Assembly: GCA_918797485.1 (NCBI GenBank)
Contig: CAKKNE010000005.1
Location: 558,001-622,000, forward strand
Direction of reading: 5' to 3'
Source: Pelagomonas calceolata
Lineage: Eukaryota
Length of the DNA stretch: 64,000 nt
The notes under the pieces: model-generated
What the model was told of the DNA's origin: nothing
Seen by the model: the letters and a program-made list of their open reading frames with translations, nothing else
Database searches by the model: none
In this document: one piece after another, positions 1,012-55,558 of the stretch
How the letters are laid out: every line of letters begins with the position of its first letter
Numbering within the stretch: the stretch's first letter is position 1
Translations under genes and position numbers: made by a program

Positions 1012-1033
1012 CTAGTGTCTTACATGCCGCTAG
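1012..1033 (+). promoter_or_regulatory. Conserved CTAG promoter motif
   Basis: ctagtgtcttacatgccgctag between divergent genes. Confidence 0.65.
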
Positions 1034-1148
1034 CTCAGCTCAGCGCTCTCACGTTCAAGCGCTGCTGTCGCGACCGCTGGGCCACGAAAAAATACCTTGG
1101 TGCAGTCATTCAGACCCATATAAAGTCGCGGATCCACGCCAGCCAGCG

Positions 1149-2036
1149 ATGCGGGTCGTGGTGCCGCTCGCAGCGCTGCTGCTCGGGACGACCGTCGAGC
1201 CGCTCGCGCTGAAGAGGAGAGGAGGCCTCACGAAAAGCAAGAAGAAAAAGAAGCTCAAGAAGGCACCGCCGCCCGCGCCCGTCGCGCGGGCGCCGCGGGC
1301 GCCGCTCTCGTGGTCGCTCTCGCCGGAAGAGCACATGGCCGCCGTCTCAAATGCAGTCGCGAGCGCCGCCGACGGCATACAAACAGCGCTCGCCGACGGC
1401 AACTTCTTCGCAAAAGAGTCGTTCCTCGACGAGAGGAGTGTACAAGCGATGGCTGAGGAAGCAAGACGCCTAGATCCTACACTAGTGCCGTCACAGTCGA
1501 CGCGCTACGAAGCCGGAAATACAATCGCCTACGACAAGGAGGGCGTGCGGTCGACGCAAATTCTGGGAGGGAACGATTATGACAAGGCGCCGCGACTGAC
1601 CGAATACGTGGTTTCGCTCACGGCAGCCCTGTCGGGCGTCGCCGGGCAAGTGAGACCGCTCTCGCCGAGTCGCCAGACGAACAAACTCGCGGTCTGCGAT
1701 GCGATCGGCGCGTCGTACCCAAAACACATCGATAATGGCGGTGGTGATGACCCGCGCCTGCTGACCGCTATATTATATTTGAGTGGAGATGTCGACGGGG
1801 GCCGCTTCCGCTCATATCAAGCGACGGAGGACGTCGTCACGGCGGAGGTCGCGCCGGCGCCGGGCACCTTTGTGTGCTTCTGGAGCGACCGCCTCGTCCA
1901 CGACGTCTCCGCCGTCACCCGTTTAGATGAGGCGCGGTGGGCGCTGACCGTCTGGCTCTGCACGGACGACGACGTCGTCGAGGCGACGCCCGATGAAGTC
2001 CTAGCGGCGCACTGGCCACATCTAAGAGACAGTTAG
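1149..2036 (+). CDS. 2OG-Fe(II) oxygenase, prolyl-hydroxylase (EGLN-like) family, with N-terminal leader
   Basis: YPKHIDN (HxD), LTAILYL, FWSDRLVHDV, RWALTVW. Confidence 0.8.
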   Translation: MRVVVPLAALLLGTTVEPLALKRRGGLTKSKKKKKLKKAPPPAPVARAPRAPLSWSLSPEEHMAAVSNAVASAADGIQTALADGNFFAKESFLDERSVQAMAEEARRLDPTLVPSQSTRYEAGNTIAYDKEGVRSTQILGGNDYDKAPRLTEYVVSLTAALSGVAGQVRPLSPSRQTNKLAVCDAIGASYPKHIDNGGGDDPRLLTAILYLSGDVDGGRFRSYQATEDVVTAEVAPAPGTFVCFWSDRLVHDVSAVTRLDEARWALTVWLCTDDDVVEATPDEVLAAHWPHLRDS

Positions 2037-2041
2037 TTTGT

Positions 2042-2689
2042 TTAGGCCCAATCATCATCCCCCCCGCCGTCGCCCCAGTCGTCGCCGCCGCCCGAGTTGT
2101 GGTCCACCGGCTCATGGGACGACGACGAGCCGCCGCCGAACATCGACCCCATGACGGAATGCGCAACACTGGAACCGGCGCCGAAGGCCATGCCCTGGGC
2201 CATCGTCTGGCCCAGCCCCGACATCATGCCGCCGCCTTGTTGCTGGGGCTGGCCGAGCGCGAAGCCCTGCTGCTGCTGGAGCTGACCACCTTGCCCAGGT
2301 TGCTGTTGTAAGGCGGGGCACGGCTCGCCGATGGCCGTGGTCTCATCGGTATCAATATTCCACCAGTAGACGCCGCCGTTCGCTTCTACCGGCTCCCACA
2401 CCGGTTTTTCCACCCCAACCGCGGTGACGAGGCCCGTCATGGGGTTGTGGTAGTACGTGCCCTGCGTCTCCGGATCCACGACGGGGTGCCAGTCGTGCGG
2501 CTCCAGTTCCTTCGGCGGCGGGGCGCCTCGCGCCGGTGCGGTGTCGGACGGCGGCGGGGCGCCACGGTCCGAGAAGGCGCGCAGGGACTGCGCGGACCGG
2601 AGGGCTAGGGCCGGGGCCCCGCGGCGCCACGCTTGAGCTCCTACGGGCGCGGCGCGCTGGAGGAGGAGGCGTGCGGCGCGCAGAGACAT
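2042..2689 (-). CDS. Putative mitochondrial protein with two WW-like domains and a CHCHD2/10 (Mix17)-like hydrophobic helix
   Basis: Arg-rich presequence; W..VDPETQGTYYHN and WE..GGVYWWNIDTDETT; GQTMAQGMAFGAGSSVAHSVMG. Confidence 0.7.
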   Translation of the reverse strand: MSLRAARLLLQRAAPVGAQAWRRGAPALALRSAQSLRAFSDRGAPPPSDTAPARGAPPPKELEPHDWHPVVDPETQGTYYHNPMTGLVTAVGVEKPVWEPVEANGGVYWWNIDTDETTAIGEPCPALQQQPGQGGQLQQQQGFALGQPQQQGGGMMSGLGQTMAQGMAFGAGSSVAHSVMGSMFGGGSSSSHEPVDHNSGGGDDWGDGGGDDDWA

Positions 2690-2831
2690 CTCTGGCTGCG
2701 GGTCCTTCTTGTGCGGCGACAGGCGTCGTAGGCGGAGTGGCTTGTGGTGGACGCGTGAGAGTTCCTGGAGAGCTCGCAACGCTATGCCTGAAAAGCCCGC
2801 AACCGTGGCGTTCGAGCAAAGCTCTGGTTGT

Positions 2832-2853
2832 CTAGTGTCTTACAAGACGCTAG
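2832..2853 (+). promoter_or_regulatory. Conserved CTAG promoter motif
   Basis: ctagtgtcttacaagacgctag between divergent genes. Confidence 0.65.
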
Positions 2854-3025
2854 CGGCGGTTTTTTAGCCAGCCAATATCACGCCTGCGAGACGCGCAGCG
2901 GCCCAGAGCGGTCTCTCGGAGAAGTTCTGAACACTGCGAACCGCGCGCGGCCACGAAATCGGCACGAAACAGCAGCAAAAACACACCCCACACGGTCCAG
3001 CGCTCGCACGCCGCCGCAGACACAA

Positions 3026-4790
3026 ATGGCCACCTCGATGGAAGTCGGCCTCGGAACCGTAGAAATCGACAACGCCGACGTCATTAGATTGGTCCTCCAG
3101 TATCTCCGGGAGGCGGGCCTCACGGGCGCCGCGGCCGAGCTCGAGAGAGAGGCAGACGTAAGACTCAACGCGTTGACAAATAAGGCGTCATTGGTCGAGG
3201 ACGTGCGCAAGGGCCGCTGGGAGAAGGCCTTACCGCGGTTGAATGGGTTGGACCTGCCGCGACAAGCGTCCTGTGATTTGTGGGAACATATAGTAAGGGA
3301 ATTAGTGGCATCGAGAGAGCCCAAGGCGGCCAAAAGTGTCCTGGAGGGCGCGTCACCTCTGCTATATTTGCGCGAGACGGATCCTGGAAGGTTAGATGCT
3401 TTGAAACGACTCGTTTCCAGATCCGCGGAGTTTGAACGACTAGGGGGCCAGGCGTATAGCGCCCAGGACACGGTCGACGCCTTCCCTGAGGACTCCCGAG
3501 ATGTTAAGAGGAGAAAGCTGTCCGAGACCATCGACAGCGCTCTTGGGGAGGTGGCTCCCGAGAGACTAGCATCACTCCTCGGCGCTGCACTCAGGTGGAG
3601 AGCCCACACGGGTCGAAGTGAGGCAGGCCGCGTCGACATCTTTAGAGGTAGTGCAAAGAAGGCCAAGCTCGAGGCCGAGAAGCCACCTCGCAGACAAGCG
3701 GGCGCGTTACGGCTCGGCGAGGGCTCGCGGCCTCTATGTCTCTGTTTCAGTGGAGACGGCACGGCGCTGATCACTGGTTCGTCAGACGGCTTCATCGAAG
3801 TGTGGGATCCCGCATTGTGCAGATTAAGGCAGGACCTCGTGTACCAGGCGCGCCACGGCGTCCTTCTTCTTCGACCGCCTCTCTGATGGAGACGAGTCGC
3901 CTCGACGGCGCGAGACCGCCGCGCGACCGCGAAACCGCACGCAGGCCAAGGACGAGCTCATGCTGCACGACGCGCCCGTGTTGGCGGTACAAGCATCTCC
4001 TGATTCCACCGCGTTAGCCTCGGGATGTAGAGACGGCACTCTCAAGGTCTGGCGGCTGTCTACCGGTGCCTGCGCGCGCAAGTTCGCCAAGGCCCAGCAG
4101 GGCGCCGTGACGTGCATCGCATGGTCGAGAGACGGCAGTCAACTCATCACCGGTGGCGCGGACGGCGTCGTTCGTACGCATGGCCTGAAGTCGGGACGGC
4201 AGCTCCAGCAGTTCTCCCACTCCGCGTCGGGCTCTACCTGTTCCGTGGGATTCGTGTCCGACTCCACAATCATATCGGCGGCCTCTGATGGAAGGGTAAC
4301 GTTGTGGGACGCGCGGTCGGCGTCGTCGCTGCAGTCGCTGACGGCGCCCGAAGCCCTGGCTAAACGAGATAGAGTCGAAGTCGCCTCGACCTCAAGAAAC
4401 GTGGCCGTCGTCTCTTTGTTATCTGTCGAGGGCCCCAAATTCGTCGTGGTCGATCGATCAGCAACAGCTATCTTAGTAGATGTGCGGTCGGGCAAGGTCC
4501 ACGCGTCCTACTCGTCTTCCTCAGAACCGCAGCGCGCTTTGCCACCGGAAGCGCCGCGGAAGCCTACGACGGGTGGTGTTTTTGTGGCAGCCTGTTGTTC
4601 CCAGCCTCGGCGCGACTACGTCTACTGCGTGACCGAGGAGGGTTTTCTGTATGCGTTCGTGACGCAGACCGGCGTGTTGGAGCGAATCCTGGATCTCGGC
4701 GAGGCGTGCTCCGGCCTGGAGGCGCACCCTTCGTTAAATACAATCGCGTGCTGGGGCGCTTCCGACGTCGTCCGGCTCTGGAAACACTAA
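3026..4790 (+). CDS. SMU1: WD40 splicing factor SMU1 (exons 3026-3847, 3945-4790)
   Basis: LisH DVIRLVLQYLRE, CTLH and WD40 repeats. Splicing restores DLVYQ|AKDELMLHDAPVL. Confidence 0.9.
3848..3944 (+). other. GC-AG intron of SMU1
   Basis: cag|gcgcgc...cacgcag|gcc joins the two ORFs in frame. Shares a 30-nt block with the intron at 19431-19543. Confidence 0.75.
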
Positions 4791-4801
4791 CACTTATACA
4801 T

Positions 4802-5779
4802 CTATGTCGCCCTACGGATTATGACACCGTTGTCGATCACGGTGCCATGCCTGTCGGCGGCATGTCCTGGAACCGCTTGCAACACGAGGGGAGCCTTCTC
4901 CCTAATCTCCTCGGGCACCGGCGCCCTCCTCGAGTCATCTCCGGCGACGGCCCAGACCTTCTGGCGCGTCTTCGCCGGTAATAGGTAGGTTGCGGTCGCG
5001 AGCGACACGCGCGCCCACCGCGGTAAAGGGTAGACGACCACGCACCGCAACCGCTCGGGATAGCAGTCCGGCACCGTCCTTGCGAGCTCTCGTATCAAGG
5101 GCCAGAAGGCCGTGGCCCCGTGGTTCGGCCAGCCCTTGCCGGCTCGACAGTCGATCAGAACGACAAACTGCGCCGCATCCTCGGAAGCGAGGGCCGCATC
5201 CAACGTGCGGCAGACGTGCGCCGCGTAACTACTGGAAGAGATTTGAGACGGGTCGAAGCGCGCACCTTCTACTAACACTACACGATCACCTCGCTTGCCG
5301 ACGCCGTCGTCCTGATGTAATCGCTCGCCAAGGGCGATGAAGCGCGACGGCGACGACTCTCCACCGACTACTAACGGTGCCGCCTTCCGTTGTAATGTCT
5401 CGGCCGCGCCCTCACCTAAACGCCAGCGCTGGTAGGCCCTATAGAATTCGACGGCGCCGCCGTCCGGCCGCGCGTCGGCGAACCGTCGGAGCTCGGCCCG
5501 CGGCGCCGCCGGGAAGTGGCGTCTTAGGATAGCGACCTTGCCGTCGTCGTCGTCGTCACTACTGCTGCTTGACGGCGCGTCGGCGGCGCCCCAACGAGCA
5601 TTTCGCTCGGTCTGTGACACTTGGCGCAGTGCGAACGGTGGATGGTCGTACACATCGTCTCGCCTGGGACCGTCCCGTCGCGCCGACGCGTCGCCGTCGC
5701 TGCGAGCGCGATCGTTGGCGGCATAGGAAGCCATTGTTGCGGCCGCTGCGCGCACGGCAACTCTGCGGGCCACCAGCAT
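4802..5779 (-). CDS. CRAL-TRIO (Sec14-like) lipid-binding protein
   Basis: ELRRFADAR, FVVLIDCRAG, DCYPERLRCVVVYPLP, LLPAKTRQKV. Start uncertain. Confidence 0.75.
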   Translation of the reverse strand: MLVARRVAVRAAAATMASYAANDRARSDGDASARRDGPRRDDVYDHPPFALRQVSQTERNARWGAADAPSSSSSDDDDDGKVAILRRHFPAAPRAELRRFADARPDGGAVEFYRAYQRWRLGEGAAETLQRKAAPLVVGGESSPSRFIALGERLHQDDGVGKRGDRVVLVEGARFDPSQISSSSYAAHVCRTLDAALASEDAAQFVVLIDCRAGKGWPNHGATAFWPLIRELARTVPDCYPERLRCVVVYPLPRWARVSLATATYLLPAKTRQKVWAVAGDDSRRAPVPEEIREKAPLVLQAVPGHAADRHGTVIDNGVIIRRAT

Positions 5780-5935
5780 GTAGGGCCTCAAACTCGCTGG
5801 TGCCGGTTCGGAATCACACCCAGTTTTCTCACGCAGCGAGGAATGCTGTAGGGTCGCGATGCACGACCTTCACGTCGACGCGTATGGTTGAGCAGGGGCT
5901 GGCGAGGGGTCTTTTGGTCCAGGCTGGCTGGAGCT

Positions 5936-5956
5936 CTAGTGTGTCTCTGCCGCTAG
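5936..5956 (+). promoter_or_regulatory. CTAG promoter motif (variant)
   Basis: ctagtgtgtctctgccgctag between divergent genes. Confidence 0.5.
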
Positions 5957-6125
5957 CACGAATTCTTTAAAATTTTTGCCGAGTGGCATTTGAAGGGCGC
6001 GGGAGCGCCAAGGCAGCCTGTGTAGCTGGCATAGTGTAGCCGGCTGTCATAAGAGGCAGTGCTGACGACCGGAGGTGCTGCAGCGATCTCTAAATCCAAA
6101 AAAACTTGAAACACTGAGCAAACCG

Positions 6126-7890
6126 ATGCGCGACGACGCCGCCGACGCGGGCGCTCGGCCCGCACCGATGGCCGAGACCGATGCGCCACCGACCGACACC
6201 ACCGATGCGTCGACGGCGCCAGCAGACAACGAAGAGGCCGTGCCGCGCTACGTCGTCTTACTAGCAATGTGCGCCGCGTTAAATTCGTGCAACCTCGGCT
6301 ACGACATCGGCGTGAACAGCGGTGTGGGCCCCCACCTGCAAGCGAAAGGAGAAGGCATGAATTTATCAGACCTACAATTAGAATTATTTTTTGGCATCTT
6401 CGGTTTAGCAGCAATGCTAGGCGCGGCAGTAGCCTACACGGCGTCGGACGGTTTCGGGAGGAGGAAGGCCTTCGCGTGTACTTCTGCAACCTTCATTATT
6501 GGAGTTTTGTGGACCGCGGCGGCCACGTCCTACGCGTCATTGATGTGCGGACGCTTCGTCACCGGTCTCGGCGTCGGCCTCGGCCTAGCAATAGACCCGG
6601 TCTACATCGCGGAGGTCTCGCCCCCGAAGCATAGAGGTAGATTAGTGACGTGGAGCGAGACCGCAACGAACGTGGGTATATTGTTAGGATTCGTGTCCGG
6701 TTTTGGATTCCGAAACGCGGGGGAGGTGGGATGGCGCTCGATGCTCGCGCTGGGTGCTATTATACCGTCCGTGTTACTGGTGCTCGTGTTTACGTTCATG
6801 CCGGTCCGCGCGCGGCGTCCGTCTCTTCGCGGCGCGGCGCTTGCCGTGCCTTCGCGTCGGTGGCGTCGGGTGCCACCCATATCGCCGCGACGTCGCTTCC
6901 GTGCGCCCCTGACGCGGCGATGGCGTCTCGACTGGCGCCGCCGCGACGCCATCGACGCGACCCACCACCAGAGATCTCACGACGCCCACGACGCGCCCGC
7001 TCCCCGCGCAGGAGTCGCCGCGCTGGCTCGTAGCGAAGGGTCGCAGCGAGGAGGCCAAGCTCATTCTGCGGAGGTGCTATCCACCTAATGCTGATGTGGA
7101 CGCCGTCGTCGCGGCGATACAAGCCGCAATTACCGAAGAGCGCAACGCGTCCAACGCCTACGGCTGGTCCGCGTTGTTGTGGCGGCCGACGAAGACGACG
7201 AAGCGCATGCTCATTGTGGGCGTCGGCGTCGCGATGTCGCAGCAGACGACCGCGATCGAAGCGATCCAGTACTACATCTTGTATATTCTGGCGGACGCCG
7301 GCGTCGAGGCGCGGTCCAAGCAATTTGGGATATTATTACTTATTGGATGTATCAAGGTTGTGGTCATTGTGGTGGCTGGTAGGCTCTTTGACCACCCTCG
7401 TCTAGGCAGGAAGCCTTTATTAACGCTGTCGAACGCGGGCTGCGGAGGATGCCTACTTTTGTTGGCCATCGCGACGGCGACGAGCTCAGCACCACTAGCG
7501 ATTCTGGCGCTCGCATTGTACGTGACGTTTTTCAGTCTGGGCGCGGGCCCGGGGATATGGCTCGTCGCGTCGGAAGTGTTCTCGCTCGGCATCCGCGGCA
7601 AGGCGATGTCCATGGCGACGACGGGCAACCGGGCGCTGGCGACGTTGGTCAGTGCGACGTTCCTGTCGCTGAAGAACGCGCTGGGTGATGTGGGATTTTT
7701 ATTACTCTTCAGCGCGTTGTGTTGCGGGAACGTGATTTTCATTCGGTATTTAGTGCCGGAGACCAAAGGAAAGTCACTGGAGGAGATGCTCGCCTACTTC
7801 GAGGACCTGGCCGGCGAATCGGCGCGCAAGGAGATCGAGCTGCCTGCTTCCCGCTCGCCCGAGGCGACGCCCGAGGCGACCATGGTGTAG
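6126..7890 (+). CDS. MFS sugar/polyol transporter (exons 6126-6803, 7012-7890)
   Basis: LGYDIGV, SDGFGRR, PVYIAEVSP..RG, FMP|ESPRWL restored by splicing, VPETKGKSLEE. Confidence 0.9.
6804..7011 (+). other. GT-AG intron (208 nt) with inverted copies of the CGCCATCG motif
   Basis: ccg|gtccgc...cgcgcag|gag; motif copies at 6913-6926 and 6946-6960. Confidence 0.85.
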
Positions 7891-7926
7891 TTTTGTAATG
7901 TACATGTATTTCTTACTCACACGCCA

Positions 7927-7977
7927 CCACGCCATCGCCGCGACTCACAAGCCTCCACGCCATCGCCGCGACTCACA
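7927..7977 (+). repeat. 23-bp direct repeat x2 (ccacgccatcgccgcgactcaca)
   Basis: Copies at 7927-7949 and 7955-7977 in a convergent intergenic gap. Confidence 0.85.
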
Positions 7978-7984
7978 GGGTAGC

Positions 7985-8800
7985 TCAGAGGTCGGCGGCG
8001 AGACCCGCCCAGGGGAATTCGCCCGCGGACGTCGGCGAGGTCACCGCCGGCGCCAGGACCTTCGTGAGGCGCTCGCACGCCGTCGAGCGACTCGCGCACG
8101 TCGCGACGGTCGCCGGCGACATCGTCACCCCGCCGTCTTTGCGGACGAGGCGCACCACGTACGACAGGCGCGCCGCGCCGGCGCCGACGCTGTGAAGGCG
8201 CATATTATCGAAGGAGTTGCCCACGCCTACGGCGTTCCGCCGCGTCGTCGCGAAGAGCCAGAAGAGCGGCCGCGACAGAAAGTTCAGGAGCTTGTGCGGC
8301 CGGCTGTAGATGCCCCACTTAACGATGACGAAGTGGTGCAGCGTCGACACGAGCGGCCAGTCGAGCGTCGCGAGGCTGCCTCCGTCCGGCGTGAGGTTGA
8401 AATGGACGCTCACGAAGTCGTGGTTTCTTATAGAGGAGACGCCGGCAAATTCAAAAGGCCCGAGGCTCTCGTAGTCCCCGTGCCAGTCGACCCGCTTTCC
8501 TTGTGACTCGAAGACGACGTCGAAGGCGATCGCGTGGTCCGGTAACTGCTCGTGGATCTGCTCGCGTAAAGACGCAAACGCCTTGCTGTGAATGTGCATC
8601 GGGGCGTACTGGCGCCGGCTCCAGCCGTAGCTGCCCGCGAGGGTCGGCCCGGAGTTGAAATGGTCTTGGATCGCCGCCCGCTGCTCGGGCGCGAGGCGAA
8701 TGCTCGCCGGCTCGGGCTTGTTTCGCACCAGAAGCATGACGACGACGAGGCCCACTGCGGCGCCGGCGAGGGCCGGGAGAAAGAGGGCGGGGATCTCCAT
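7985..8800 (-). CDS. Membrane-anchored hypothetical protein, possible cupin/2OG-Fe(II) fold
   Basis: N-terminal TM helix; WHGDYES (HxD) and FDNMRLHSV. Confidence 0.6.
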   Translation of the reverse strand: MEIPALFLPALAGAAVGLVVVMLLVRNKPEPASIRLAPEQRAAIQDHFNSGPTLAGSYGWSRRQYAPMHIHSKAFASLREQIHEQLPDHAIAFDVVFESQGKRVDWHGDYESLGPFEFAGVSSIRNHDFVSVHFNLTPDGGSLATLDWPLVSTLHHFVIVKWGIYSRPHKLLNFLSRPLFWLFATTRRNAVGVGNSFDNMRLHSVGAGAARLSYVVRLVRKDGGVTMSPATVATCASRSTACERLTKVLAPAVTSPTSAGEFPWAGLAADL

Positions 8801-9271
8801 ATAGTGCGCGTATGAAACAAATGACTCTTCGGCTTCTCGTGTCTCTCGGGCCACACGCAGCGGGCCGATCACGCTGCAGTTGTTAATCCAGAGTAAGCGG
8901 GTTGATGGCTACCTCTTCGCAGCGTGAGAGCAGGTGAGAGCTCGTCTCCGTCGCGCAGGAGCCGATTTGATCTCAGTCTCACAAAATGATGCCGGCCGCT
9001 GCCGCCGAGCCGCCTGTCGTGCCTGGAGCTCCGAAGAGCCATAACCTACCCGTGCGACGACTCTTGCGACAGCTCGAGGCGAAGAAGGGCAGTTCGCCTC
9101 CTCGACGGAGGTCGAGTTGTAGCTCTCACTGGCTCGTAAAAACGCTGCCACTGACGCCTGCCGACGCGCGTTTGCAAGCAAAACACGTCCTTTGCACTCG
9201 TCACGTTTCGCACCCTTCGACTCCCTGCAAAAAGTGCAGCCGTAGGACTCGCAACCCTCTGAAAAGCAGCC

Positions 9272-10354
9272 ATGAGGCGTGTCGTCCGCCTCAGCAACTT
9301 CAGGGGCCGCCGGCACAGCACCGCCGCTGCAACCCAAGCCTCTCAGCTAGACGTGCTCATCAGGGAGCGCGCGACGGATGGGGCCATATGCAAGGACACG
9401 GGCCTGACGTACGCAGCCAAGTACGACTGCTCATTATTAGATGGTGCCACGGTCCTAGATGAAGCGACGGGCTGGGGACTACGAGTACCCAATTGTGACC
9501 TCACGAAGGCCGCACAATTCACGAAGGACGACGTCCAAGCTATAAAACGTGTCATTCAGGACGTGAGAGGCATCCTCACTTTTCCCAATCAGCAGGACCT
9601 CCACCCGAAGGACCACGTCGCGTTTGCGGCCCACTTCGGAACACCAGAAAAGCACATGGTGGCGAACGGGCTGCCGGACCACCCCGAGATCTTAGAAATT
9701 GTCAGAGAAAAAGACGCTCAAATAGTCTTCGGCGAGGAGTGGCACAGCGACCACAGCTTCCAGCCGTTACCTGCCTCCTACTCTTTTTTGAGAGCGACGG
9801 CGCAGGTGACGCCCTACGGTACAAATAACACGGAGTTCGCGCACTGCGAGGCTGCTTGGGATGCATACTCCGATACGATGAAACAACTACTCCTGCCTTT
9901 AGATGCCTACCATTCGGCAGGAAAAGCCTACGGCGACGGCGCCAAGTACGGCAAGACCACGCCGAACTCTAGGGAGGCGATGCTCGAAACCAGTTCTATG
10001 ACTTTCGCAGTAGAAAAGGAAGAGGAAATTATTCCTGATTGTATTCATCCCGTCGTCGTGCGCCACCCGGAGACCGGTAGAGATGCCGTCTTCATCTCCG
10101 AGACCTTTACCAATGGCATCGTGGGCATGACGGCGCGCGAGGGCCTCGAGATGACGCGCCTGATCCAGAACCACGTCACGCAGCCGCAATTTCGCGTCCA
10201 GGTGGCCTATGAACCTCATCAATTAGCGATGTGGGACAACCGCTCGCTGATCCATCGAGGCTTGCAAGATGATACGAGCGCGAAGCGTGTGATACAAAGA
10301 GCCTCGGTGTCGATGGCGGCGCCGCCCGTGGCGACGCGGGACTTCCTCCTCTAA
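9272..10354 (+). CDS. TauD/TfdA-family alpha-ketoglutarate dioxygenase
   Basis: WHSDHSF, HPVVVRHPETGR, MWDNRSLIHR. Confidence 0.9.
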   Translation: MRRVVRLSNFRGRRHSTAAATQASQLDVLIRERATDGAICKDTGLTYAAKYDCSLLDGATVLDEATGWGLRVPNCDLTKAAQFTKDDVQAIKRVIQDVRGILTFPNQQDLHPKDHVAFAAHFGTPEKHMVANGLPDHPEILEIVREKDAQIVFGEEWHSDHSFQPLPASYSFLRATAQVTPYGTNNTEFAHCEAAWDAYSDTMKQLLLPLDAYHSAGKAYGDGAKYGKTTPNSREAMLETSSMTFAVEKEEEIIPDCIHPVVVRHPETGRDAVFISETFTNGIVGMTAREGLEMTRLIQNHVTQPQFRVQVAYEPHQLAMWDNRSLIHRGLQDDTSAKRVIQRASVSMAAPPVATRDFLL

Positions 10355-10390
10355 GACCCCCCTTTTAAGATTCGCTCCGACTTACTCCAT

Positions 10391-11035
10391 CTATTTCACG
10401 GCCTTTTGGACCTTCTCCAGCTGCGCGGCGACGGCGTCCTTCGCGTTCGAGGCGGCGACGGCGGCCCCGCGCGCCTCCCAGCCCACCTTGGCGCCGACGA
10501 GCCCTCCGAGGACGGCGCCAATACCGGCGGTCTGGAACGTCGCCTTGATACCCGCAAACGGCCCGGCCGGCTCGGCCAGTTCGCCCAGGTCCGGGACCGC
10601 CCCGGGCAGCGACACCTTCGGCAGGTCGACCTTCTCGGGCAGCACGGACTGGACCTCGGGGGGAAGCGCGGCTTTCGCTTCTTTGATCGGCTTCAAAACG
10701 GCACCGACGGCGTTCGCCTTGGTAGTTTCGACCTGTTCCAAGGCACTGGCTTTGGCCTGCGCCACGCTGTCGACGGCCGCCTCCTTCGCATCCAACACAG
10801 AGTCCTTGGCGTCCAATACCGAATCTCTCGCATCCAAGACCGAGTCCTTGAGCGAGTCGAAGTCGAAGGCGAGGAGGTGCGTGCCGGAGAAGTCAAACGC
10901 CAGCAGGTGCGTGCCGAGCTCGTTTAAAATTGAGGCAGCGCAGGTCGTGGGCGTGCGCCGCCGCGCTGGCGCCGCGTGGAAGCCCGCGGTCATCCCGCAT
11001 GAGATCAAAAGCAGGGCAGCTCTGGCTTGGCGCAT
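10391..11035 (-). CDS. Putative plastid-targeted hypothetical protein with internal repeats and a C-terminal Gly-rich TM
   Basis: Signal peptide ending TAG-F; GTHLLAFDF x2; DSVLDA x3. Confidence 0.65.
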   Translation of the reverse strand: MRQARAALLLISCGMTAGFHAAPARRRTPTTCAASILNELGTHLLAFDFSGTHLLAFDFDSLKDSVLDARDSVLDAKDSVLDAKEAAVDSVAQAKASALEQVETTKANAVGAVLKPIKEAKAALPPEVQSVLPEKVDLPKVSLPGAVPDLGELAEPAGPFAGIKATFQTAGIGAVLGGLVGAKVGWEARGAAVAASNAKDAVAAQLEKVQKAVK

Positions 11036-11419
11036 GGTTTTACAGCCGTGGGATGCGCGACCTCGCGAGCAAGCGATGCTGGCGGGTAGAGAGGCTGCAA
11101 ACGAAGGCGTGCGCGGCTCACAACTCTCCGGCCTGCTGCCTGGCGCGAGAACAGCGCGCTTTTGTTCTAAGATTCCAGCTTATCTCGCGGGTTTCCAAGG
11201 CTGATGGACAAAGGCATAGCATGCGGAGAATAAAGCCACCACTCGCCTTCTCCCGGTGTTTCGGTACCTGTGGACCTGCGAGTCTCCTGCCCGGCGGCGC
11301 CGCGTCGTTGCCGCGCGGTCGGCCGTCACGGCGCTTCCTGGTAGCACTAGTACGCGTGGGCGCGTCCACGCGTCTATCCGGAGCAGCGAAGGGCCGCAGA
11401 CGTTCATCTCATTTTCAGG

Positions 11420-11440
11420 CTAGCGGCTGAGAGACACTAG
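11420..11440 (-). promoter_or_regulatory. CTAG promoter motif (variant)
   Basis: Reverse complement ctagtgtctctcagccgctag between divergent genes. Confidence 0.55.
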
Positions 11441-11667
11441 CAATCACTTTGCGGCTTGCTACTCGATCGGCTTGCTCGCCTCGATCGAAGCTTACTGCTC
11501 CCCCGAACATAGCGCTACAGCTCGCGGACGCATCAATCTTTCAAGCGCACGGCTCGAAGGTGTCGCCGGACGCCACGCAGCGACGCCCTTGCTTATTCGG
11601 CTGGCAAGCAAAGCACGCCGCGCGAAGACGCCGCCGCCGCGACCCACAATAACCAACGACAGCGGCC

Positions 11668-12618
11668 ATGGAGCACCGCCCGCCAATACCGCCAGTGCCA
11701 CAGCCCGTCGCGCCTCCACTCCAAAGGCCCTACGAGCCGCCGCCCTTGCTGGGGAACCCGTACGACACGTTCAATGGCCTGACTGCAGCGGTGGCCGCGC
11801 AGATGCCCGTCCAGCCGCCCATGGCCATCCAGACGGCCCTCCCACCACTCGGCGGCGTGCCCCAACAACCTGTACAACTCAAGCGGCCGGCCCCTGAAAG
11901 TACCCAGAAGAAGAAGAGGGTCAGGAGGCACTGGGACGAGTGCACGAATTGTGACTCGAAGCACGGCATGCGGTACGGGAGAGTCGTGAATCGACAAATA
12001 CAGTACCTGGGGTGTGACCGCTGCAAGGGCGATTATTTTGCGACCCATGGTGTCAAGCTCAAGGATTTGACGAGGGTCTGTGAATGTGGAAGTGGCAAGG
12101 ATCGGAGGTACGGCCCGAAAGGGGGCACGGCCGTCGCGTGCGTCGAGTGCAAGGACCAGAAAGTCTCCCAAGACGGGCAGCCTTTGATAAACCTGAGACC
12201 GTCCACGGGCCAATGTTCCTGCGGCTCGGGCAAGGTCAAAAGGTTCGGCTACCCTCCGACCCAGGTTGACCAAGGTAGGAAAGGTCCAAGCGCGAGGACG
12301 AACTGCATCGACTGCAAGACCGAAGGCATGGTCAATTTATCACTGAGTAAAAAGCCCGAGGAGTCCTGGGGCGGCAAGTGTTCGTGTGGTAGCGGGAAGG
12401 TGCGGCGGTTTGGTCTTAAAGGTGGCCCTCGCACGGCGTGCATCAACTGCAAATCGGACGCGATGATTAATCTGACCACCAAAATCTGTACGTGTGGTTC
12501 GGACCGGCAGGTGCGCTTCGGGAGACCTGGTGGGAAACCGGAAAAGTGTTCCCAATGTAAGAGTGAGGGCATGGTCGACCTCACGAAGAAGAAGGACGAG
12601 GATCCCGCGCTCGGGTAA
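11668..12618 (+). CDS. Cys-rich repeat protein, EsV-1-7-like
   Basis: About 5 repeats of CxCGSGKxxRFG...CxxCK..GMVxL after a Pro-rich N-terminus and a KKKR NLS-like patch. Confidence 0.7.
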   Translation: MEHRPPIPPVPQPVAPPLQRPYEPPPLLGNPYDTFNGLTAAVAAQMPVQPPMAIQTALPPLGGVPQQPVQLKRPAPESTQKKKRVRRHWDECTNCDSKHGMRYGRVVNRQIQYLGCDRCKGDYFATHGVKLKDLTRVCECGSGKDRRYGPKGGTAVACVECKDQKVSQDGQPLINLRPSTGQCSCGSGKVKRFGYPPTQVDQGRKGPSARTNCIDCKTEGMVNLSLSKKPEESWGGKCSCGSGKVRRFGLKGGPRTACINCKSDAMINLTTKICTCGSDRQVRFGRPGGKPEKCSQCKSEGMVDLTKKKDEDPALG

Positions 12619-12821
12619 TTTTACACATAGATATACTTAGTTGCGTCGATGGCGTGCCCCCCCACGCCGTCGCCGCATGCTGGTGGCTGCGCGCTCGGGT
12701 AATCACATAGTATACTTAGTATCGCGCCGTCGCGGCGATGGCCACGCCGTCGAGGCGGCGCGCGGTCGCGGCGAGGCGTGCTGGTGGCTTCTCCACGGCC
12801 TCCACGCTGCCGCGGAGGCGC

Positions 12822-14461
12822 CTAGAACGCCTCGCCCCGGAAGAAGCGCGCGATGAAGGCTAGAGCGGCTTCCGGTTGGAACGTCGGGACCATGTGGCCC
12901 GCCAGGCGGATCGTGAGGAAGGATGCATCCGGGCCCTTCGATGGAAACGTCTTGCCCGGGACGCTGTACGTCGTCACGTAGCCGGCCGGCGCCTTCTGCG
13001 AGCCTCTCTCGGCGTACCACGGCTGCCACGGTGCTTTTTCCACCAACGAACCGGCAGTCTCCAGATTTGTGACGAGCTCCTCGTTTCCTTTGTAGGGGAC
13101 GCATAAATCGGCGTCGCCGTTGTAGATGAGCACGCGCATGTGCTGCACGAGGTGGGGCCAGAGGAGCTGCGACGCGGGGCCGGATTGCTTGTACTTGAAC
13201 CCGCTTCCCGGGCCCTTGAGGTGGAGCGCTGCCTGCACGTCCGCCCGCGTGAAGTAGCCGTCGAGGGCGCTGTCGGAGCTGCAGTCCCAGGGGTAGCCTC
13301 CATTGACATCAAAAGCCGCTTCGAACGCGGCGTCGAGCTCCAAGCGACTCAGGTGCATGCGGCCGCGGTGGAACGCCCGCACGGCGCGCTGCGAGACGTG
13401 GGGATTCGTCGCGTGCCAGGCGTCGGCGAGCGGGCCTGTGTGGAAATCAAATTTCAGGCGCGCCACGCCATCGACGCGACTGTGCCCATTACTACACCTG
13501 AAAAAATCGAACCCACGGTTGATTTTCCACACAGCAAGGGACAGTCGTCGTAGATGTCGTAGATGTTGAACGGCCCCACAGCGTCCTCGGCTTGATCTAA
13601 CAACGTATTGCAGGCCGCCGACGCCCCGGCCACGGGTAACGAGTCGTCGTCGTCGTCGCCCTCCGCAATGGCGTCCCAGTCGCAGGTGGCCTGGATCTTG
13701 GTGTAGAGCTTGTCGGGAAGCATCCCCTTGCCGTAATATATGTCTATGTCGTTGCGCTCGGCGTTCGGCCCGTTGCACTGGACGCTAGTTTGGGTGCCGC
13801 CCCAACAACCATTTCCCACAGCTAATCCCGTGATCTTGAAACTATATGAAGACTGCAGCACGTGGTAGGCGATGTTCGGCACGTACTGGCCGGCGTAGCT
13901 CTCGCCCGTCAGATACAACTCACTGGACTTGTACTCGGGGAACTTCTCGAGGAAGGCCTCGATCGTGTGGGCGTAGGCCACCGCTTGAGTGACATCCGTC
14001 CACTTGCAGGCGTCCTGTTTCTTCCCGTCAATGAAACACGTCGAGTAGCCCGTCTGGGCGCCCGCGATCGTGGAGCCGGCCGGGCTCTCGAGGTACAACA
14101 TGTGCGCCGCCTGGTTCCAGGCGTTCTTCTCGTTGTAGACCGGGCCCTGGGCCATCAACTGGAACGGGCCCATCTCCGTCCAGGCCCCAAACACGGCCGA
14201 GCCGCCGGGCCCGCCTTGATGCCAGAGCGCGAGCGGGCAGTCCTTCGCACGGCAGGTGTGGAGCTCGTAGTGGATCGAGAGCGAATCGTAGCCCGTCGAG
14301 GCTTTTGGCACGTCGACGTCGAGGTAGCCGCTGTAGACGTCGAAGCCGAGGCCCTGCTGGAATTGCTCTTCGAAGCCCGGGATCGACGTGACGCGGTCGT
14401 CTTCTTTTGTTGCGGCCCAGGCAGTGCTCAGTGCCAGCAGAAGGGCGGCGGCGCGCGCCAT
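12822..14461 (-). CDS. Secreted serine carboxypeptidase S10 (exons 14461-13543, 13435-12822)
   Basis: WHQGGPGGS, GESYAG, LIYNGDADLCVP, AGHMVP, signal peptide. Confidence 0.92.
13436..13542 (-). mobile_element. Introner element (intron = 8-bp TSD + 99-bp TIR element)
   Basis: Sense strand: gtcccttg + ctgtgtggaaaatcaa...ttgatttccacacag | gcccgctc. Splicing restores DDCPLADAW. Confidence 0.85.
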
Positions 14462-14714
14462 CGTTGACCGCGCAGCGAGCAGAGATCAGTGAGTGTGTTT
14501 CAGGCACGTGCGTTGCACAAGTCAAGCGCTGCGGATTGTCTCGCGGCGCCAGCACCGTATTTCAGGCTGTGGCACAGGAGAGCAGCGCGAGGCCTCCCAA
14601 GCAAAAAAGCTACGCGACGCCTCCGGCAACGCAAAGGCTTGGTCAAGCAGACCGCCTGGGGTGCGCAGCGATCCGCAAGAGCAATAATTTGTCACCGCGG
14701 ACGCACAGCGCACG

Positions 14715-15503: not shown

Positions 15504-15580
15504 GGAATGTGTGTGTACCTTTTGATAGGCGGGCAGTCGCTCATTCCCCCGGGTACTAGTCTATCCGGGTCACAAAACAC

Positions 15581-37028: not shown

Positions 37029-37046
37029 CAAACACACTTATTAACA

Positions 37047-42882: not shown

Positions 42883-42912
42883 GTCCTTCTCCCCTGGTGT
42901 AAGCGACTCACA

Positions 42913-43761
42913 TTACTTCCTACGCTTCGCCGGCGCCAGGGACGGATCGTGCGCGCCACATAAGCGCGAGTAGATCGAGTCGAGCGAGTGCTCTAGCGAC
43001 GCGTAGGCGCCGTCCTCGCGCTGCTCGGCGATGACCATCTCGTTCATGCCGCCCGGCGTCTGCTCCGCGACCAAGTCCGATAGGGTCGACGGTTTTGCGT
43101 TTCGCGCGTCGTGCGTCATCGTGTGGAAGACGCCGCCGACGTACGCCGACGCCGCCGTCGCGTCGACGCCGTTTGCAACGAGCCAGTCCTGGGCCGTCTT
43201 CTGGCGCGCGTAGAGGTCGCCCATCACGCAGGTCATGGCCTGCAGGCGCTGGAACTGGTCTTCCGTGGCCACGGGCACGGCCGTTCCCAGTCGCTCAAAG
43301 ATGGCGACGGTGCGCGGTTCGGGCGGCGTCACGATGGTCGTGCCGGCGTTCTCCGCGATGGCCGGCAGCGGGCACGCCAGCGCACATTCCGCGGGGCCGC
43401 ACCATCTTTCAATGTCTGCCAAAGGCACGCCGGCCATCAGTGAGATGACGAGCTGCCCTTGTCGAAACTGCAAAGGCTCGCACACCTGTTGAGCCTGGCC
43501 GGGCAGCACGGCCAGCACCACGCAGTCGCAGGCGTCGACGACGGCCTGGTTGGTTGCCGCGATTCGTACCGTTTCGAACTCTTGCTCCAATGCTTGCGCC
43601 TTGGCGGCGTTGCGCGGCGACAGCACAACTTGCGGTGCATCGCTGCGGCAGAGGCCGCGCACGGCCGCGGAGCTGATCGTGCCGACGCCGACGACACCGA
43701 TGGACTCGGGCACCAGGGCGCTGCCGACGCTGGCGGCCATGAGGAGTGCGATGCGGTGCAT
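42913..43761 (-). CDS. Pyrroline-5-carboxylate reductase-like oxidoreductase with a leader
   Basis: IGVVGVGTI, LSPRNA, NQAVVD..D.VVLAV, QTPGGMNE. Confidence 0.8.
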   Translation of the reverse strand: MHRIALLMAASVGSALVPESIGVVGVGTISSAAVRGLCRSDAPQVVLSPRNAAKAQALEQEFETVRIAATNQAVVDACDCVVLAVLPGQAQQVCEPLQFRQGQLVISLMAGVPLADIERWCGPAECALACPLPAIAENAGTTIVTPPEPRTVAIFERLGTAVPVATEDQFQRLQAMTCVMGDLYARQKTAQDWLVANGVDATAASAYVGGVFHTMTHDARNAKPSTLSDLVAEQTPGGMNEMVIAEQREDGAYASLEHSLDSIYSRLCGAHDPSLAPAKRRK

Positions 43762-43833
43762 AAAAATCGTTGCAACGCGTGGGTGCGCCAGCAGCCTTCC
43801 CTGCGGCTTTTTAGGCAAGCTTGCTAGGCAGCC

Positions 43834-43855
43834 CTAGTGTGTTACTCTACGCTAG
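43834..43855 (+). promoter_or_regulatory. Conserved CTAG promoter motif
   Basis: ctagtgtgttactctacgctag between divergent genes. Confidence 0.6.
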
Positions 43856-43927
43856 CTTGTGTTTTTGGCTCAAAAAAGCCTTTGCGTACGCTGTTTAGCA
43901 CGCTTTCGTCGTCAGCGATACAAGCGC

Positions 43928-44296
43928 ATGGCCCTGGCACTCCTCCGCCGCGCGAGCACCCTGCGCCGCTCGCTGGCCACGTACGCAAAGGTCCAAGACA
44001 GGGACACCACTGTGGCAGCCCTGCGATTACGAGGCTGGAAGGACCAAGCACCTAAGAGGGACGCCGTCGCGAAGCGCTTCGAGTTCGCGAGCTTCAACGA
44101 AGCGTTCGGCTGGATGTCGCGAGTAGCGTTACAAGCGGAATCCGTAGATCACCATCCCGAGTGGACGAACCTCTACTCCATCGTCGAGGTCACGCTCACG
44201 ACACATGCGGTAGACGGTTTATCGGACCGCGACGTTCAAATGGCCGATTTTATGGACCATGCGGCGGCGCGCTTCGCGCCCAAGCCCTTCAAATGA
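43928..44296 (+). CDS. Pterin-4-alpha-carbinolamine dehydratase
   Basis: [34 protein letters not shown]. Confidence 0.92.
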
Positions 44297-52736: not shown

Positions 52737-52773
52737 TGTAACTGTGCCGACTGAGTAACTAACTAAAGACTAC

Positions 52774-55380
52774 TTAAAACTCGTGCTTGTGGTGCGACTT
52801 TGAGGGAGGCGGCTTGCGCAGGTGGACGATCTTCGCGCGGCGACCCGTCGCGTAGGGGCCGTTAATTATCAAGTTCGGCAGCAGCGTTAATGATCGGCCT
52901 TTTGAGGCCAGGCACTTGTTGAGGAGGACGTGCTCGCAGTCCCAGATGCCATCTGTCACAGAAAAATCGTACGCGCAGCCGTCGTCGCGGAAAATTGCGG
53001 AATCGTAGATAGCTAGACCACCAAAGCACGACGCGACGCGCCGCCCGCCGCTATCATACAGACGGTCGGCTTCGGAGGAAGGGCTCTCCGACGGCGCGAG
53101 CTCGATACCGCCCGAGGGCTGGTCCTCGAAATCGGACCACCGTAACGCGAGCAAGTCGCGGTGGATGAATCGATCCTGTTGCGCCTGCGCAATGATGCCG
53201 TTGCCGCAGACGGCGTCGTAGCGCCCGTCGATGACTGCCGCTATAGCGTTAATGATGTGGGACGAGGCCCAGCCACTCCCCTGGTCGGCGTCGTAAACGA
53301 CGAGAGCATCCACAACTGATTGTTTGAGGATGTAGGACGTCAAATGGTTCCGCAACAAGGCCATCCGCATGTACCGCTTCTGGCGCAGGGCCTCGTCCCT
53401 CCTGAGAGCGTAGGCTCCTTTCATGGACTCGTCCCACGCCCACTTATCTGAAGACGGAGGCGGCGGCACCGCTTCCACATATGTTTTGGCATCGATCCAC
53501 CGCTCCAGCACTTGGGGCGTGCAGTCGGAGGACCCGTCCTCGAGGATATATACTTTGAATTCCAAATCAACAGCTTGTGCGATCAGCGCGTCGACCATCC
53601 TGGTGTTGCACGTGAACGCCGCGCACGCGTCGCGCACCAACGCCGCTAATGCCACGTTTTTTGAGGCTGAGTTTTTTTCTCTTTCTAGTCGTGTGACGGG
53701 AGAGACGTAATCGGCGGCATGCTGCAGCATGAGGTAGTCTTCTCTTGTCTTCGGGTGTGTTGATGCATAAGTACCTTTCATCCACCAGGCCCTCCGGTTC
53801 TTCTGCACCTTCTCGCTCAGGTTGTCGCAGGTCGGCGACACGGCCTCGCCACTTTTATCTTTTGCTACTTTGTCCCAGGCTTGGAGGAACCACTGATACA
53901 TCGGTTCCACTAATTCGAGTGACGCCGTGACGAACGTCGCCAGAGGTTGTTTCGGGTAGCCCAAGCTTTTCATTGTTTGTCCATTAATTTGCAAGATGGC
54001 TTCCAATGCTTCCCGACTACCAGCGAGACCAAACAGCCAGCCGGCGCCCCGCTCCAGACTGTCTTTATCTTGTGGCCCGAGGCCGCCCGACAGCGTCATG
54101 TCCACTTGCATGTCACGAGAACAGGCCCTGGACGACTTCGACGCATCATATCTCAAACCTAGCCTCCAAGCCAACGCTTGCACCGCACGAACGCAGCTTC
54201 TCGTAACATCTTCATTTCTCACGATGACGATGCGACGGTCTTTTGCCATCTCGAGCCACTTCGTGTACGTCGCGTCCCAGAGCTGAGCGTAGTAACCCGG
54301 CGCGTGCCACACAGCTTTCGCTCTAGTGCCTCTCATGCTCAGAGGACAATCGGGGCAGTGCCGATGGAGCGAGTCCAGCCAGGCGCCGGGGTGCCTCACT
54401 CCTATGATGTAGGCTCGCACTTGGACTTGTACGGAACAAAGCGCGCCCTTACGAAAGCAGGCCTCGGCCTTGATTAATGAGTCCAGATCGCGAGCACTCC
54501 GCGCGTAGAAGGCCTCCCTATCATCTCCGACGTTCGCCGGTCTACTGGAAGCGCCATAGCCACTCCTTTCCTCCAACGGCGTCATTTCTTTGTGGGCGAG
54601 GTGCGGTGTTGTGCTATGAGGAGAGGCATATAAAACATGAGTTGAGTTCAGGCGAGAAACGTGCGTCGGTCTAAAATGCTTCCATCTTGGATCATTGAAT
54701 CGTGTTGGCGATAACCTAGGAGCCCGCCTCGCGTAGTACTCGTCGTCGCGCTCGCCATTATACACTTCCGTGCCGAGGTGCGCACTGACCAGTCCCGTGA
54801 GCGCGTTCGTTCCGGATCTCTGTAGACCGTAGAGCACGAGCGGCCCGCCCGTCTTCTCATATATCATGGGAGAGCCCCGGTCGAACCAGCCGCCACCGGT
54901 CCTGCGGCCCATTCCTGTGACGTAATTCTCCTCCAAAGCTTCGGCGAAGGCGGCCCGTCTGATCTGCAGCGCCAAAGATGACGCGTTCCGTATGGGATGC
55001 GGAGGTAACGGTGCTCCCGCCCCCCACAGGTCGCCGCCCCACAGCACAAGGGATAATCTACGACGATCTTCAATGACGGGCGCGACGAGCTGCCGCGCCG
55101 TCGCCCGCCACAGCGTCGCGCGGCACCGGTCGAGGCACATGGCCCCCCAGGCCTTCAGGCCCGGCCGCTCCCCGGTCCCGCAGTGCTCCTCGACGCACTT
55201 CCGCGCTTTTTCTTGGACGTTTAACCTCTTCGCGCAGTCGTCGCTCGGCCAGCATTTTTTGTGTTGTCCACTACCCTCGCAGGTCACGGCTGCCTTTCCT
55301 CCCTTGCGCTGGCAGAAGGCGGCGTCGAGAATTGGTAACGTGGCGAGCAGCGCGACGCATTGGCACAGGCGGCGCGTCAT
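52774..55380 (-). CDS. Secretory-pathway sulfotransferase-like + CAP59-like glycosyltransferase fusion
   Basis: Signal peptide; YGLQRSGTN, VRHPGAWLDS, VRNEDV; ILEDGSSD.T, MALLRN, VASCFGGLAIY, DCEHV. Confidence 0.7.
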   Translation of the reverse strand: MTRRLCQCVALLATLPILDAAFCQRKGGKAAVTCEGSGQHKKCWPSDDCAKRLNVQEKARKCVEEHCGTGERPGLKAWGAMCLDRCRATLWRATARQLVAPVIEDRRRLSLVLWGGDLWGAGAPLPPHPIRNASSLALQIRRAAFAEALEENYVTGMGRRTGGGWFDRGSPMIYEKTGGPLVLYGLQRSGTNALTGLVSAHLGTEVYNGERDDEYYARRAPRLSPTRFNDPRWKHFRPTHVSRLNSTHVLYASPHSTTPHLAHKEMTPLEERSGYGASSRPANVGDDREAFYARSARDLDSLIKAEACFRKGALCSVQVQVRAYIIGVRHPGAWLDSLHRHCPDCPLSMRGTRAKAVWHAPGYYAQLWDATYTKWLEMAKDRRIVIVRNEDVTRSCVRAVQALAWRLGLRYDASKSSRACSRDMQVDMTLSGGLGPQDKDSLERGAGWLFGLAGSREALEAILQINGQTMKSLGYPKQPLATFVTASLELVEPMYQWFLQAWDKVAKDKSGEAVSPTCDNLSEKVQKNRRAWWMKGTYASTHPKTREDYLMLQHAADYVSPVTRLEREKNSASKNVALAALVRDACAAFTCNTRMVDALIAQAVDLEFKVYILEDGSSDCTPQVLERWIDAKTYVEAVPPPPSSDKWAWDESMKGAYALRRDEALRQKRYMRMALLRNHLTSYILKQSVVDALVVYDADQGSGWASSHIINAIAAVIDGRYDAVCGNGIIAQAQQDRFIHRDLLALRWSDFEDQPSGGIELAPSESPSSEADRLYDSGGRRVASCFGGLAIYDSAIFRDDGCAYDFSVTDGIWDCEHVLLNKCLASKGRSLTLLPNLIINGPYATGRRAKIVHLRKPPPSKSHHKHEF

Positions 55381-55537
55381 TCTCCTCTTGGTGGCCCGCG
55401 GCGACGGCGTGCGAGGAAACACGTCACTGCATTGGTGCGCTACGCCCGCGTGGGGGCGGTTCCATTACGCCATCGATGCGGTCGAGGCGCAGGCTGCCCG
55501 GGCAGCATCGATGATGATCATCAGCTCGATTTGCTGG

Positions 55538-55558
55538 CTAGTGCCTTACGGACGCTAG
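55538..55558 (+). promoter_or_regulatory. Conserved CTAG promoter motif
   Basis: ctagtgccttacggacgctag between divergent genes. Confidence 0.65.

Follow-up and report, generated by a model that had tools for sequence, protein, structure and literature searches.

Within a gene-dense stretch of 64,000 nucleotides from Pelagomonas calceolata (63% GC; assembly GCA_918797485.1, contig CAKKNE010000005.1, positions 558,001 to 622,000 of the forward strand; hereafter the window, numbered from its first letter), a bipartite, polar motif with CTAG at both ends recurs in the gaps between head-to-head genes, is confined to promoters and lies a few tens of base pairs from most listed RNA 5' ends. The window encodes a URO-D protein whose nearest named relatives are from pelagophytes (65-68%). 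We put at roughly 65% the probability that the motif is the binding site of a general promoter-organising factor, and we infer that such a protein exists, that it keeps chromatin open and that the motif acts causally.

The motif reads (GCTTG)CTAGTGTCTTAC-N2-4-CGCTAG(CT) with a core of 20-23 bp, and with copies from metagenome loci included the consensus extends to (GCTTG)CTAGTGTCTTAC-A(G/T)G(C/A)-CGCTAG(CT). A preliminary description of the window, made from the letters alone, had placed it at twelve positions, and it is found at all of them: eleven copies match a relaxed pattern with no mismatches, a pattern that occurs 0 times in each of 100 dinucleotide-preserving shuffles, and the twelfth (25230-25251) is degenerate, with CAAG in place of the left CTAG. 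The consensus as then written is exact in seven of the twelve, and the other five deviate from it. Seven copies are on the plus strand and five on the minus strand, so the motif does occur in either orientation, and the match of 27 in 28 nt reported earlier for the copies at 1012 and 40689 is confirmed. A two-block weight matrix, trained on 31 copies outside the scan-pattern selection (11 of them from the window; core lengths of 20, 21, 22 and 23 bp in 5, 8, 13 and 5), scores the twelve window copies at 23.7-38.4 bits. The next window site, inside a coding sequence, reaches 12.5 bits and ten shuffles reach at most 14.5, and because of this gap we treat the motif as either present or absent, with no grey zone. 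Degenerate copies were sought in ten motif-less promoter gaps, where the best site has 6.9 bits and falls under the shuffle maxima of 7.7-14.5. Two further CTAG arrangements score below background on the motif model, namely a CTAG pair of left-left form before the URO-D gene (59829-59851, -5.7 bits, not counted) and a CTAG near-palindrome in a tandem promoter gap (22333-22357). The twelve copies are as follows.

1012-1033, plus strand: motif copy (34.4 bits) between the minus-strand open reading frame (ORF) 108-815 and a 2OG-Fe oxygenase gene (1149, plus strand); divergent RNA.
2832-2853, plus strand: motif copy in the divergent pair WW-domain gene/WD40 gene; T6 tract at 2860-2865; RNA 5' pile-ups at 2797-2798 (minus) and at 2876 and 2890 (plus).
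5936-5956, plus strand: motif copy in the divergent pair CRAL-TRIO/sugar transporter; RNA 5' pile-ups at 5916 (minus) and 5989 (plus).
11420-11440, minus strand: motif copy in the divergent pair unknown ORF/EsV-1-7-domain gene; pile-ups at 11470-11488 (plus, near) and 11146-11164 (minus, 256-274 bp away).
16353-16374, minus strand: motif copy nearest to the full consensus (38.4 bits), in the divergent pair unknown ORF/CLN3; divergent RNA.
21678-21697, minus strand: motif copy of the 20-bp form between the minus-strand ORF 20942-21496 and a 69-aa plus-strand ORF, 22002-22211; outside the RNA-covered regions.
25230-25251, minus strand: degenerate motif copy (left CAAG) in the divergent pair proline/alanine-rich ORF/SET-domain gene; 23.7 bits although outside the training set; outside the RNA-covered regions.
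40689-40710, minus strand: motif copy in the divergent pair C1-domain gene/IFT52; strong 5' pile-up at 40845-40847, 135 bp away.
43834-43855, plus strand: motif copy in the 166-bp ATG-to-ATG gap between an F420-type oxidoreductase and a pterin dehydratase gene; 5' pile-up at 43801 (minus).
47116-47137, plus strand: motif copy in the divergent pair OTU1-like/unknown ORF; T5 tract just to the right; pile-ups at 47085-47088 (minus) and 47160-47163 (plus).
48303-48323, plus strand: motif copy between tandem genes, following a (TTTA)n tract, with 82 bp left to the ATG at 48405; no minus-strand RNA of note.
55538-55558, plus strand: motif copy in the divergent pair CAP59-like glycosyltransferase/VPS9 gene; divergent RNA.

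Placement was judged on 41 genes annotated by hand from Pfam matches, a coding model (trained on 32 coding stretches of the window), translations and stranded RNA, the last of which covers positions 1-17000 and 39500-56500 only. On this annotation eleven copies lie head-to-head and one (48303) upstream of a tandem gene, exactly as first described. Motif-bearing junctions make up 11 of 17 divergent (65%, so that the wording "most divergent promoters" was apt), 1 of 6 tandem and 0 of 17 convergent ones, and of the 40 gene starts within the window, 23 border a gap that holds a copy. Junctions that contain a promoter differ from convergent ones (12/23 versus 0/17, P=3e-4; divergent versus convergent, P=9e-5), whereas the difference between divergent and tandem junctions is not significant within the window (11/17 versus 1/6, P=0.07). 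One of the motif-less divergent junctions, 19814-20394, owes its class to a weak ORF. Three mechanically called ORFs (10999-11430, 40620-42218 and 54992-55558) overlap copies, but these are not the genes, because IFT52 RNA begins at 40845 and the coding model drops the other two; the statement that no copy lies inside a coding region thus stands. The genes on either side belong to diverse Pfam families, both in the window and at metagenome loci, and are functionally unrelated, as had been noted.

An exact-pattern scan of metagenome contigs gave at least 121 stretches, which left 120 loci (321 kb), and all locus figures given here are among the matches listed. These loci hold 144 copies, 20 of them outside the scan pattern. 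Not one of 155 copies from loci and window falls in predicted coding sequence, even though predicted coding makes up ~48% of locus DNA, and none of 28 convergent junctions in the loci bears the motif. The preliminary description had named a lack of enrichment relative to coding sequence or convergent gaps as the outcome that would speak against a promoter element; the counts, zero in coding sequence and zero at convergent junctions, show the opposite. A predicted gene lies within 500 bp on 101 of 288 locus sides, with 77 sides facing a 5' end and 24 a 3' end. The 5'-facing sides are symmetric (40 left-arm and 37 right-arm, with median distances to the ATG of 196 and 197 bp), and motif orientation is irrelevant. 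Since Pfam backs nine of the 3'-facing gene calls, tandem promoters with the motif are real, and we therefore regard it as a general promoter element and not a divergent-only one. The earlier proposal of a general bidirectional promoter element accordingly holds for placement and for RNA 5' ends 20-48 bp to either side, but not as a feature specific to divergent genes, given that 24 of 101 sides face a 3' end. Among locus copies other than the scan seeds, 6 of 13 divergent and 2 of 10 tandem junctions were counted. Copy density is 0.10 extra copies per kb in 163 kb of long loci versus 0.19 per kb in the window, from which roughly 2,500-5,000 copies per genome are extrapolated. Ten proteins from motif-bearing loci were compared with protein clusters: one is identical to, and three cluster at 90% with, proteins named as Pelagomonas calceolata, and six have no such name among the listed members. 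Together with the relatives of the URO-D protein, this bears out the pelagophyte origin that the preliminary description had assumed. Viral contigs gave no exact motif match, and prokaryote genomes gave 8 matches versus ~13 expected by chance. Five of these eight (L122-L125 and L128) have ~60% GC and the extended motif, and are likely Pelagomonas contamination because one and the same stretch turns up as L125 and L128 in two bins, one bacterial and one archaeal.

RNA of opposite strands is found on the two sides of every covered divergent copy. Expression depth, compared by eye in the RNA-covered regions, does not separate motif-bearing from motif-less genes. Eight of the ten listed 5' clusters lie 20-48 bp outside the outer CTAG (P=3.5e-5 versus ends evenly spread between the motif and their own ATG), and near clusters occur on both sides at three of the four promoters for which both ends are listed. 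At 2832, 5936 and 47116, distances of 79, 73 and ~74 bp separate the nearer divergent 5' ends, and the motif is off centre by no more than 7 bp. RNA-seq fragment ends probably fall slightly downstream of true starts, so the true start spacing may be tighter. The three spans are as follows.

2797-2890: interval bounded by divergent RNA 5' pile-ups (79 bp when counted to the nearer one), with the motif in the middle.
5916-5989: interval of 73 bp bounded by divergent RNA 5' pile-ups, with the motif in the middle.
47085-47163: interval of 72-78 bp bounded by divergent RNA 5' pile-ups, with the motif in the middle.

The two arms of the motif are alike but unequal, and the inequality is kept: 155 stretches are of left-right form, three are left-left and none is right-right. 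The fifth base is T in all 26 copies that were found without fixing that base, and no compensatory pairing between the arms was seen. Outward-reading TTTT occurs 4-20 bp from the motif on 45 of 303 sides versus 7 of 303 at 41-57 bp, and A tracts stand beside it on 30 of the 303 sides. TATA(A/T) is present within the first 40 bp on 3 of 292 sides, and apart from the T tracts and a partner element described below, no positioned TATA- or initiator-like k-mers were found beside the motif.

The sequence around the motif is not shared between copies. The 40-bp flanks of 148 copies have a mean identity of 26%, with one of 10,878 pairs reaching 60%, and 4-, 5- or 8-bp target duplications were found at none of 151 copies. 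Between homologous loci, whose proteins are 82-96% identical, changes in the motif fall in the spacer while the flanks drift: in the pairs L011/L032 and L010/L086 the motif is identical at 20 of 23 and 22 of 23 positions (the spacer difference of the second pair including a 1-nt indel), and the 50-bp flanks align at 25-37 of 50. The pairs L071/L075 and L042/L073 were left out as orthologous pairs, and L068/L119 may be paralogues. The homologous genes of L029 and L062 (82% at the amino acid level) each have a copy nearby, similarly far from the gene but flipped in one relative to the other, and the gene on the far side has been replaced, which suggests for this one case that position matters and orientation does not.

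Taken as the site of a promoter-organising factor, the motif could work as follows. An abundant general transcription regulator would bind the double-stranded motif and keep the promoter open, and RNA polymerase II would start on both sides. The regulator, a protein or a heterodimer, may have two DNA-binding modules that are joined by a flexible link and between them read the two unlike CTAG half-sites, an arrangement that would explain half-sites that differ and that have 4 bp of play in their spacing. Binding, together with the T and A tracts, would keep ~100-150 bp free of nucleosomes, and preinitiation complexes would be positioned back to back with polymerase II starting 20-50 bp away on either side. 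At tandem junctions, this complex may in addition delimit the 3' end of the upstream gene, sometimes with the partner element on the right side.

Several observations weigh against this reading. Six of the 17 divergent promoters lack even a degenerate copy, the best site there having 4.3 bits, and two motif-less divergent gaps have 5' pile-ups, at 8966 and 14626, so the motif is not required for transcription. The RNA comes from four stranded runs of polyadenylated RNA, all of one sample, and records fragment ends and not cap-mapped starts; the listed 5' ends represent six of the ten covered copies in ten clusters, two of which are distant (135-137 and 256-274 bp), and the 20-50 bp range was picked after the data were seen. 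Pfam supports 33 of 76 of the 5'-facing and 9 of 24 of the 3'-facing gene calls. Both members of each homologous pair were chosen by the exact pattern, so that conservation of the fixed positions is partly by construction and the restriction of change to the spacer is weak support. As for the nucleosome-organising role that the preliminary description had offered as an option, nucleosome-scale periodicity of CG, AT or TA phased on the motif was looked for and none was found (autocorrelation peaks <0.02).

The partner element has the core GCGGGAGCCCTGG, often with TAAAC before and AAGCCG after, and stands 3-67 bp beyond the right arm in about a dozen listed loci, in the same orientation as the motif.

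L006:1372, L011:775, L018:8510, L021:4149, L030:16, L031:1462 and L031:5486, same orientation as the motif: partner element, right of the motif.
L058:3551, L066:3522, L081:345, L108:182 and L112:351, same orientation as the motif: partner element, right of the motif.

With a lax pattern, the 15 right sides that face a 3' end yield it six times (five of these being good matches) and the 46 right sides that face a gene start do not yield it at all (P=5e-4, calculated with the five good matches); seven more are on unclassified sides. None was found on left sides of the listed loci and none in the window. In L112 the element sits between two motif copies 44 bp apart. The partner element may shut off transcription to the right or terminate the transcript coming from upstream; it may also be a small insertion with a preference for this position. 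A more far-reaching proposal, tentative and in our estimate rather unlikely, is that one long bipartite core element, read by an undescribed basal-like factor, sets up two back-to-back initiation complexes ~75 bp apart for about half of Pelagomonas genes, and that the right-side partner closes the direction without a gene, giving a two-part direction code in a minimal eukaryotic genome.

Other explanations place the motif differently with respect to transcription. It could be a core-promoter element read by the basal machinery or by a TBP-recruiting complex, each CRCTAG arm taking the place of TATA or the TFIIB recognition element (BRE) and setting the start, with the site shared by back-to-back complexes. 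With divergent 5' ends separated by just 73-79 bp and the motif midway between them to within 7 bp, little room is left for separate core promoters; the same half-site points outward on both strands, and nothing else is positioned there beyond T tracts. Yet the distances spread over 20-48 bp with two beyond 130 bp, and six of the 17 divergent and five of the six tandem junctions lack the motif. A specific sequence of 20-28 bp is also long for a basal element, and we consider this alternative unlikely. A TATA-type element in particular was rejected, as the motif works both ways and is not AT-rich, although its distance of 20-48 bp overlaps the TATA zone, given as 25-34 bp upstream of the start in a passage of PMC6192621. 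A chromatin boundary or replication-origin signal, which would sit in promoters as the only open intergenic DNA of a compact genome, would fit the tandem-gap copies 41-125 bp from the upstream stop codon, and the sites of yeast general regulatory factors (GRFs) are described as roadblocks to both transcription and replication (PMC5052057, in part). The motif is, however, never found in convergent gaps (0/17 in the window, 0/28 in the loci), where a boundary would also be useful, it is tightly linked to RNA 5' ends, and there is one copy per 5-10 kb. Such a spacing is dense for origins, and all this makes the explanation improbable.

Two readings concern the DNA itself. The imperfect inverted arms ending in CTAG, the active introner repeats of this genome and the few loci that share sequence beyond the motif (the partner element, L042/L073 and L021/L095) would suit the end or footprint of a dispersed transposon such as a miniature inverted-repeat transposable element (MITE), a Helitron or an introner; this was the other outcome that the preliminary description had set against its own proposal. 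A present-day transposon end is rejected because the flanks are unrelated and target duplications are absent, and the motif is moreover confined to promoters and kept at homologous positions while its flanks diverge. Specifically, a MITE or DNA-transposon end is contradicted by the lack of both a target-site duplication (4-8 bp, 0/151) and shared internal sequence. Helitron 3' ends have a hairpin upstream of the terminal CTAG, then a host T, and a shared body upstream. Here the right CTAG is followed by C in 25 of 31 unselected copies and by T in two, with no shared body. A transposon is thus highly improbable as the present identity of the motif, although the motif could descend from an ancient transposon that was later co-opted. 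A DNA hairpin or cruciform, or an RNA stem-loop, is suggested by arms that can form a 7-bp stem with one G-T wobble and by the copy at 2832, which is nearly a full palindrome. This too has very little probability: positions 7 and 16 form a T-C mismatch in 55 of the 90 22-mers, predicted DNA stems have only -0.1 to -5.7 kcal/mol, and it is inconsistent pairing at the inner positions and weak stems that argue against a hairpin. Furthermore, the perfect right-right palindrome occurs 0 times while the wobble T is kept in 26 of 26 copies, and RNA starts outside the motif, with reads touching 16361 numbering only 3-5 per run and all carrying letters of other copies. A structured RNA or DNA hairpin was accordingly dropped as a candidate, with no compensatory changes and no Rfam match at gathering score in 20 motif loci (four chance-level matches in six loci).

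Several repeats and gene arrangements were observed near the motif. The copy at 48303 is directly preceded by a repeat fragment (48090-48300), which draws reads from other loci, and then by the (TTTA)n tract. L042:796-930 and L073:156-267 share a 112-bp stretch, 96% identical, that begins ~40-50 bp right of the motif, with unrelated sequence farther out; it is possibly a small RNA or conserved leader, and Rfam gives only an 18-nt chance-level Plant_SRP match (E=0.39) on it. L021:3860-4010 and L095:1-75 have a stretch in common that contains a palindrome of 28 bp, without mismatch in L095, followed by CTAG and by a CTAG pair of left-left form, and that we take to resemble a Helitron-type end; telomere-like CCCTAA repeats lie near it in L021. 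An 80-bp element, 82-96% identical, recurs in four motif-bearing loci (L030:3126-3209, L055:2172-2261, L066:2082-2159 and L096:187-273) and matches neither a tRNA call nor an Rfam family; a tRNA scan of 51 loci made two calls, neither at these elements. Downstream of the copy at 43834, the stop of the pterin dehydratase gene (43928-44296) overlaps the start of a nitroreductase-family gene (44293-45801; ATGA) with continuous plus-strand RNA and no intergenic gap, possibly a two-gene transcript or an internal promoter. Introner-like repeats lie at 6803-7010, 13435-13541, ~17650-17740, 19434-19600 and 22538-22680, the first two being spliced in RNA and the last matching several metagenome loci, and the window carries a 208-bp repeat-bearing intron. 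The genome preprint gives 63% GC, 16,667 genes, ~210-bp introners and 11% intergenic DNA for P. calceolata (10.1101/2021.10.25.465678, in part), a description with which the GC content of the window and this intron agree.

The motif is real and, as far as searched, undescribed. A literature search, with subscription papers and supplements outside its scope, found no description of it, the main text of the genome preprint has no occurrence of "motif" or "promoter" (10.1101/2021.10.25.465678), and the CTAG passages of two papers on oomycete motifs, supplements aside, hold no match (PMC11267843, PMC3597505). Pelagophyte promoters appear to be undescribed. Should promoters of this abundant ocean alga, a few thousand in number, be organised by a single long site, this would point to a master factor and would offer a clean system for asking how ~75 bp can accommodate two initiation complexes and what sets the direction. 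It would also provide a two-way promoter of ~100 bp for genetic tools and an aid in annotating gene starts. The motif also flags Pelagomonas DNA within prokaryotic genome bins.

Known promoter systems offer partial parallels. The vertebrate CGCG element, TCTCGCGAGA, lies 20-70 nt (peak ~50) upstream of starts on either strand with no fixed distance, as described in part of PMC6192621. Both elements mark TATA-less promoters of unrelated genes (housekeeping genes for CGCG) with divergent starts close by. CGCG is, however, a 10-bp perfect palindrome of other sequence that marks a subset of vertebrate promoters and whose activity is demonstrated by reporters, whereas the motif here is polar and bipartite, 20-28 bp long with a variable spacer, marks 23 of 40 gene starts in the window and is known from sequence and RNA reads. 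ZNF143 is a metazoan zinc-finger protein. Its site, the Staf/ZNF143 site, is long, non-palindromic and over-represented in bidirectional promoters, and the factor is inherently bidirectional (PMC3082894, in part). The Pelagomonas motif is similarly long, non-palindromic and found in bidirectional promoters, but its sequence is unrelated and its enrichment in divergent over tandem junctions is not significant (P=0.07). BEAF, M1BP and DREF of Drosophila bind near starts, often between close divergent genes, and double as insulators, according to part of PMC12549938. These are insect proteins with short or clustered motifs, and BEAF lies within ~300 bp and not at 20-50 bp. Yeast GRF sites act as roadblocks (PMC5052057, in part). 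Like the Abf1, Reb1 and Rap1 sites, the motif recurs across promoters of unrelated genes in a compact genome (at 12 of the 23 junctions that contain a promoter), independent of orientation (40 left versus 37 right) and beside poly(dA:dT) tracts. Abf1 and Rap1 sites are bipartite as well. Yeast GRF sites can bound upstream transcripts, and they lie further from the start than the motif does. We know of no yeast GRF site that covers half of all genes, nor of any whose sequence matches the motif. By sequence, as far as tested, the motif belongs to none of the CGCG, ZNF143, BEAF and GRF classes, and it differs from them in its length, its polar bipartite build with a variable spacer, the share of genes that it marks and the tight spacing of the starts around it.

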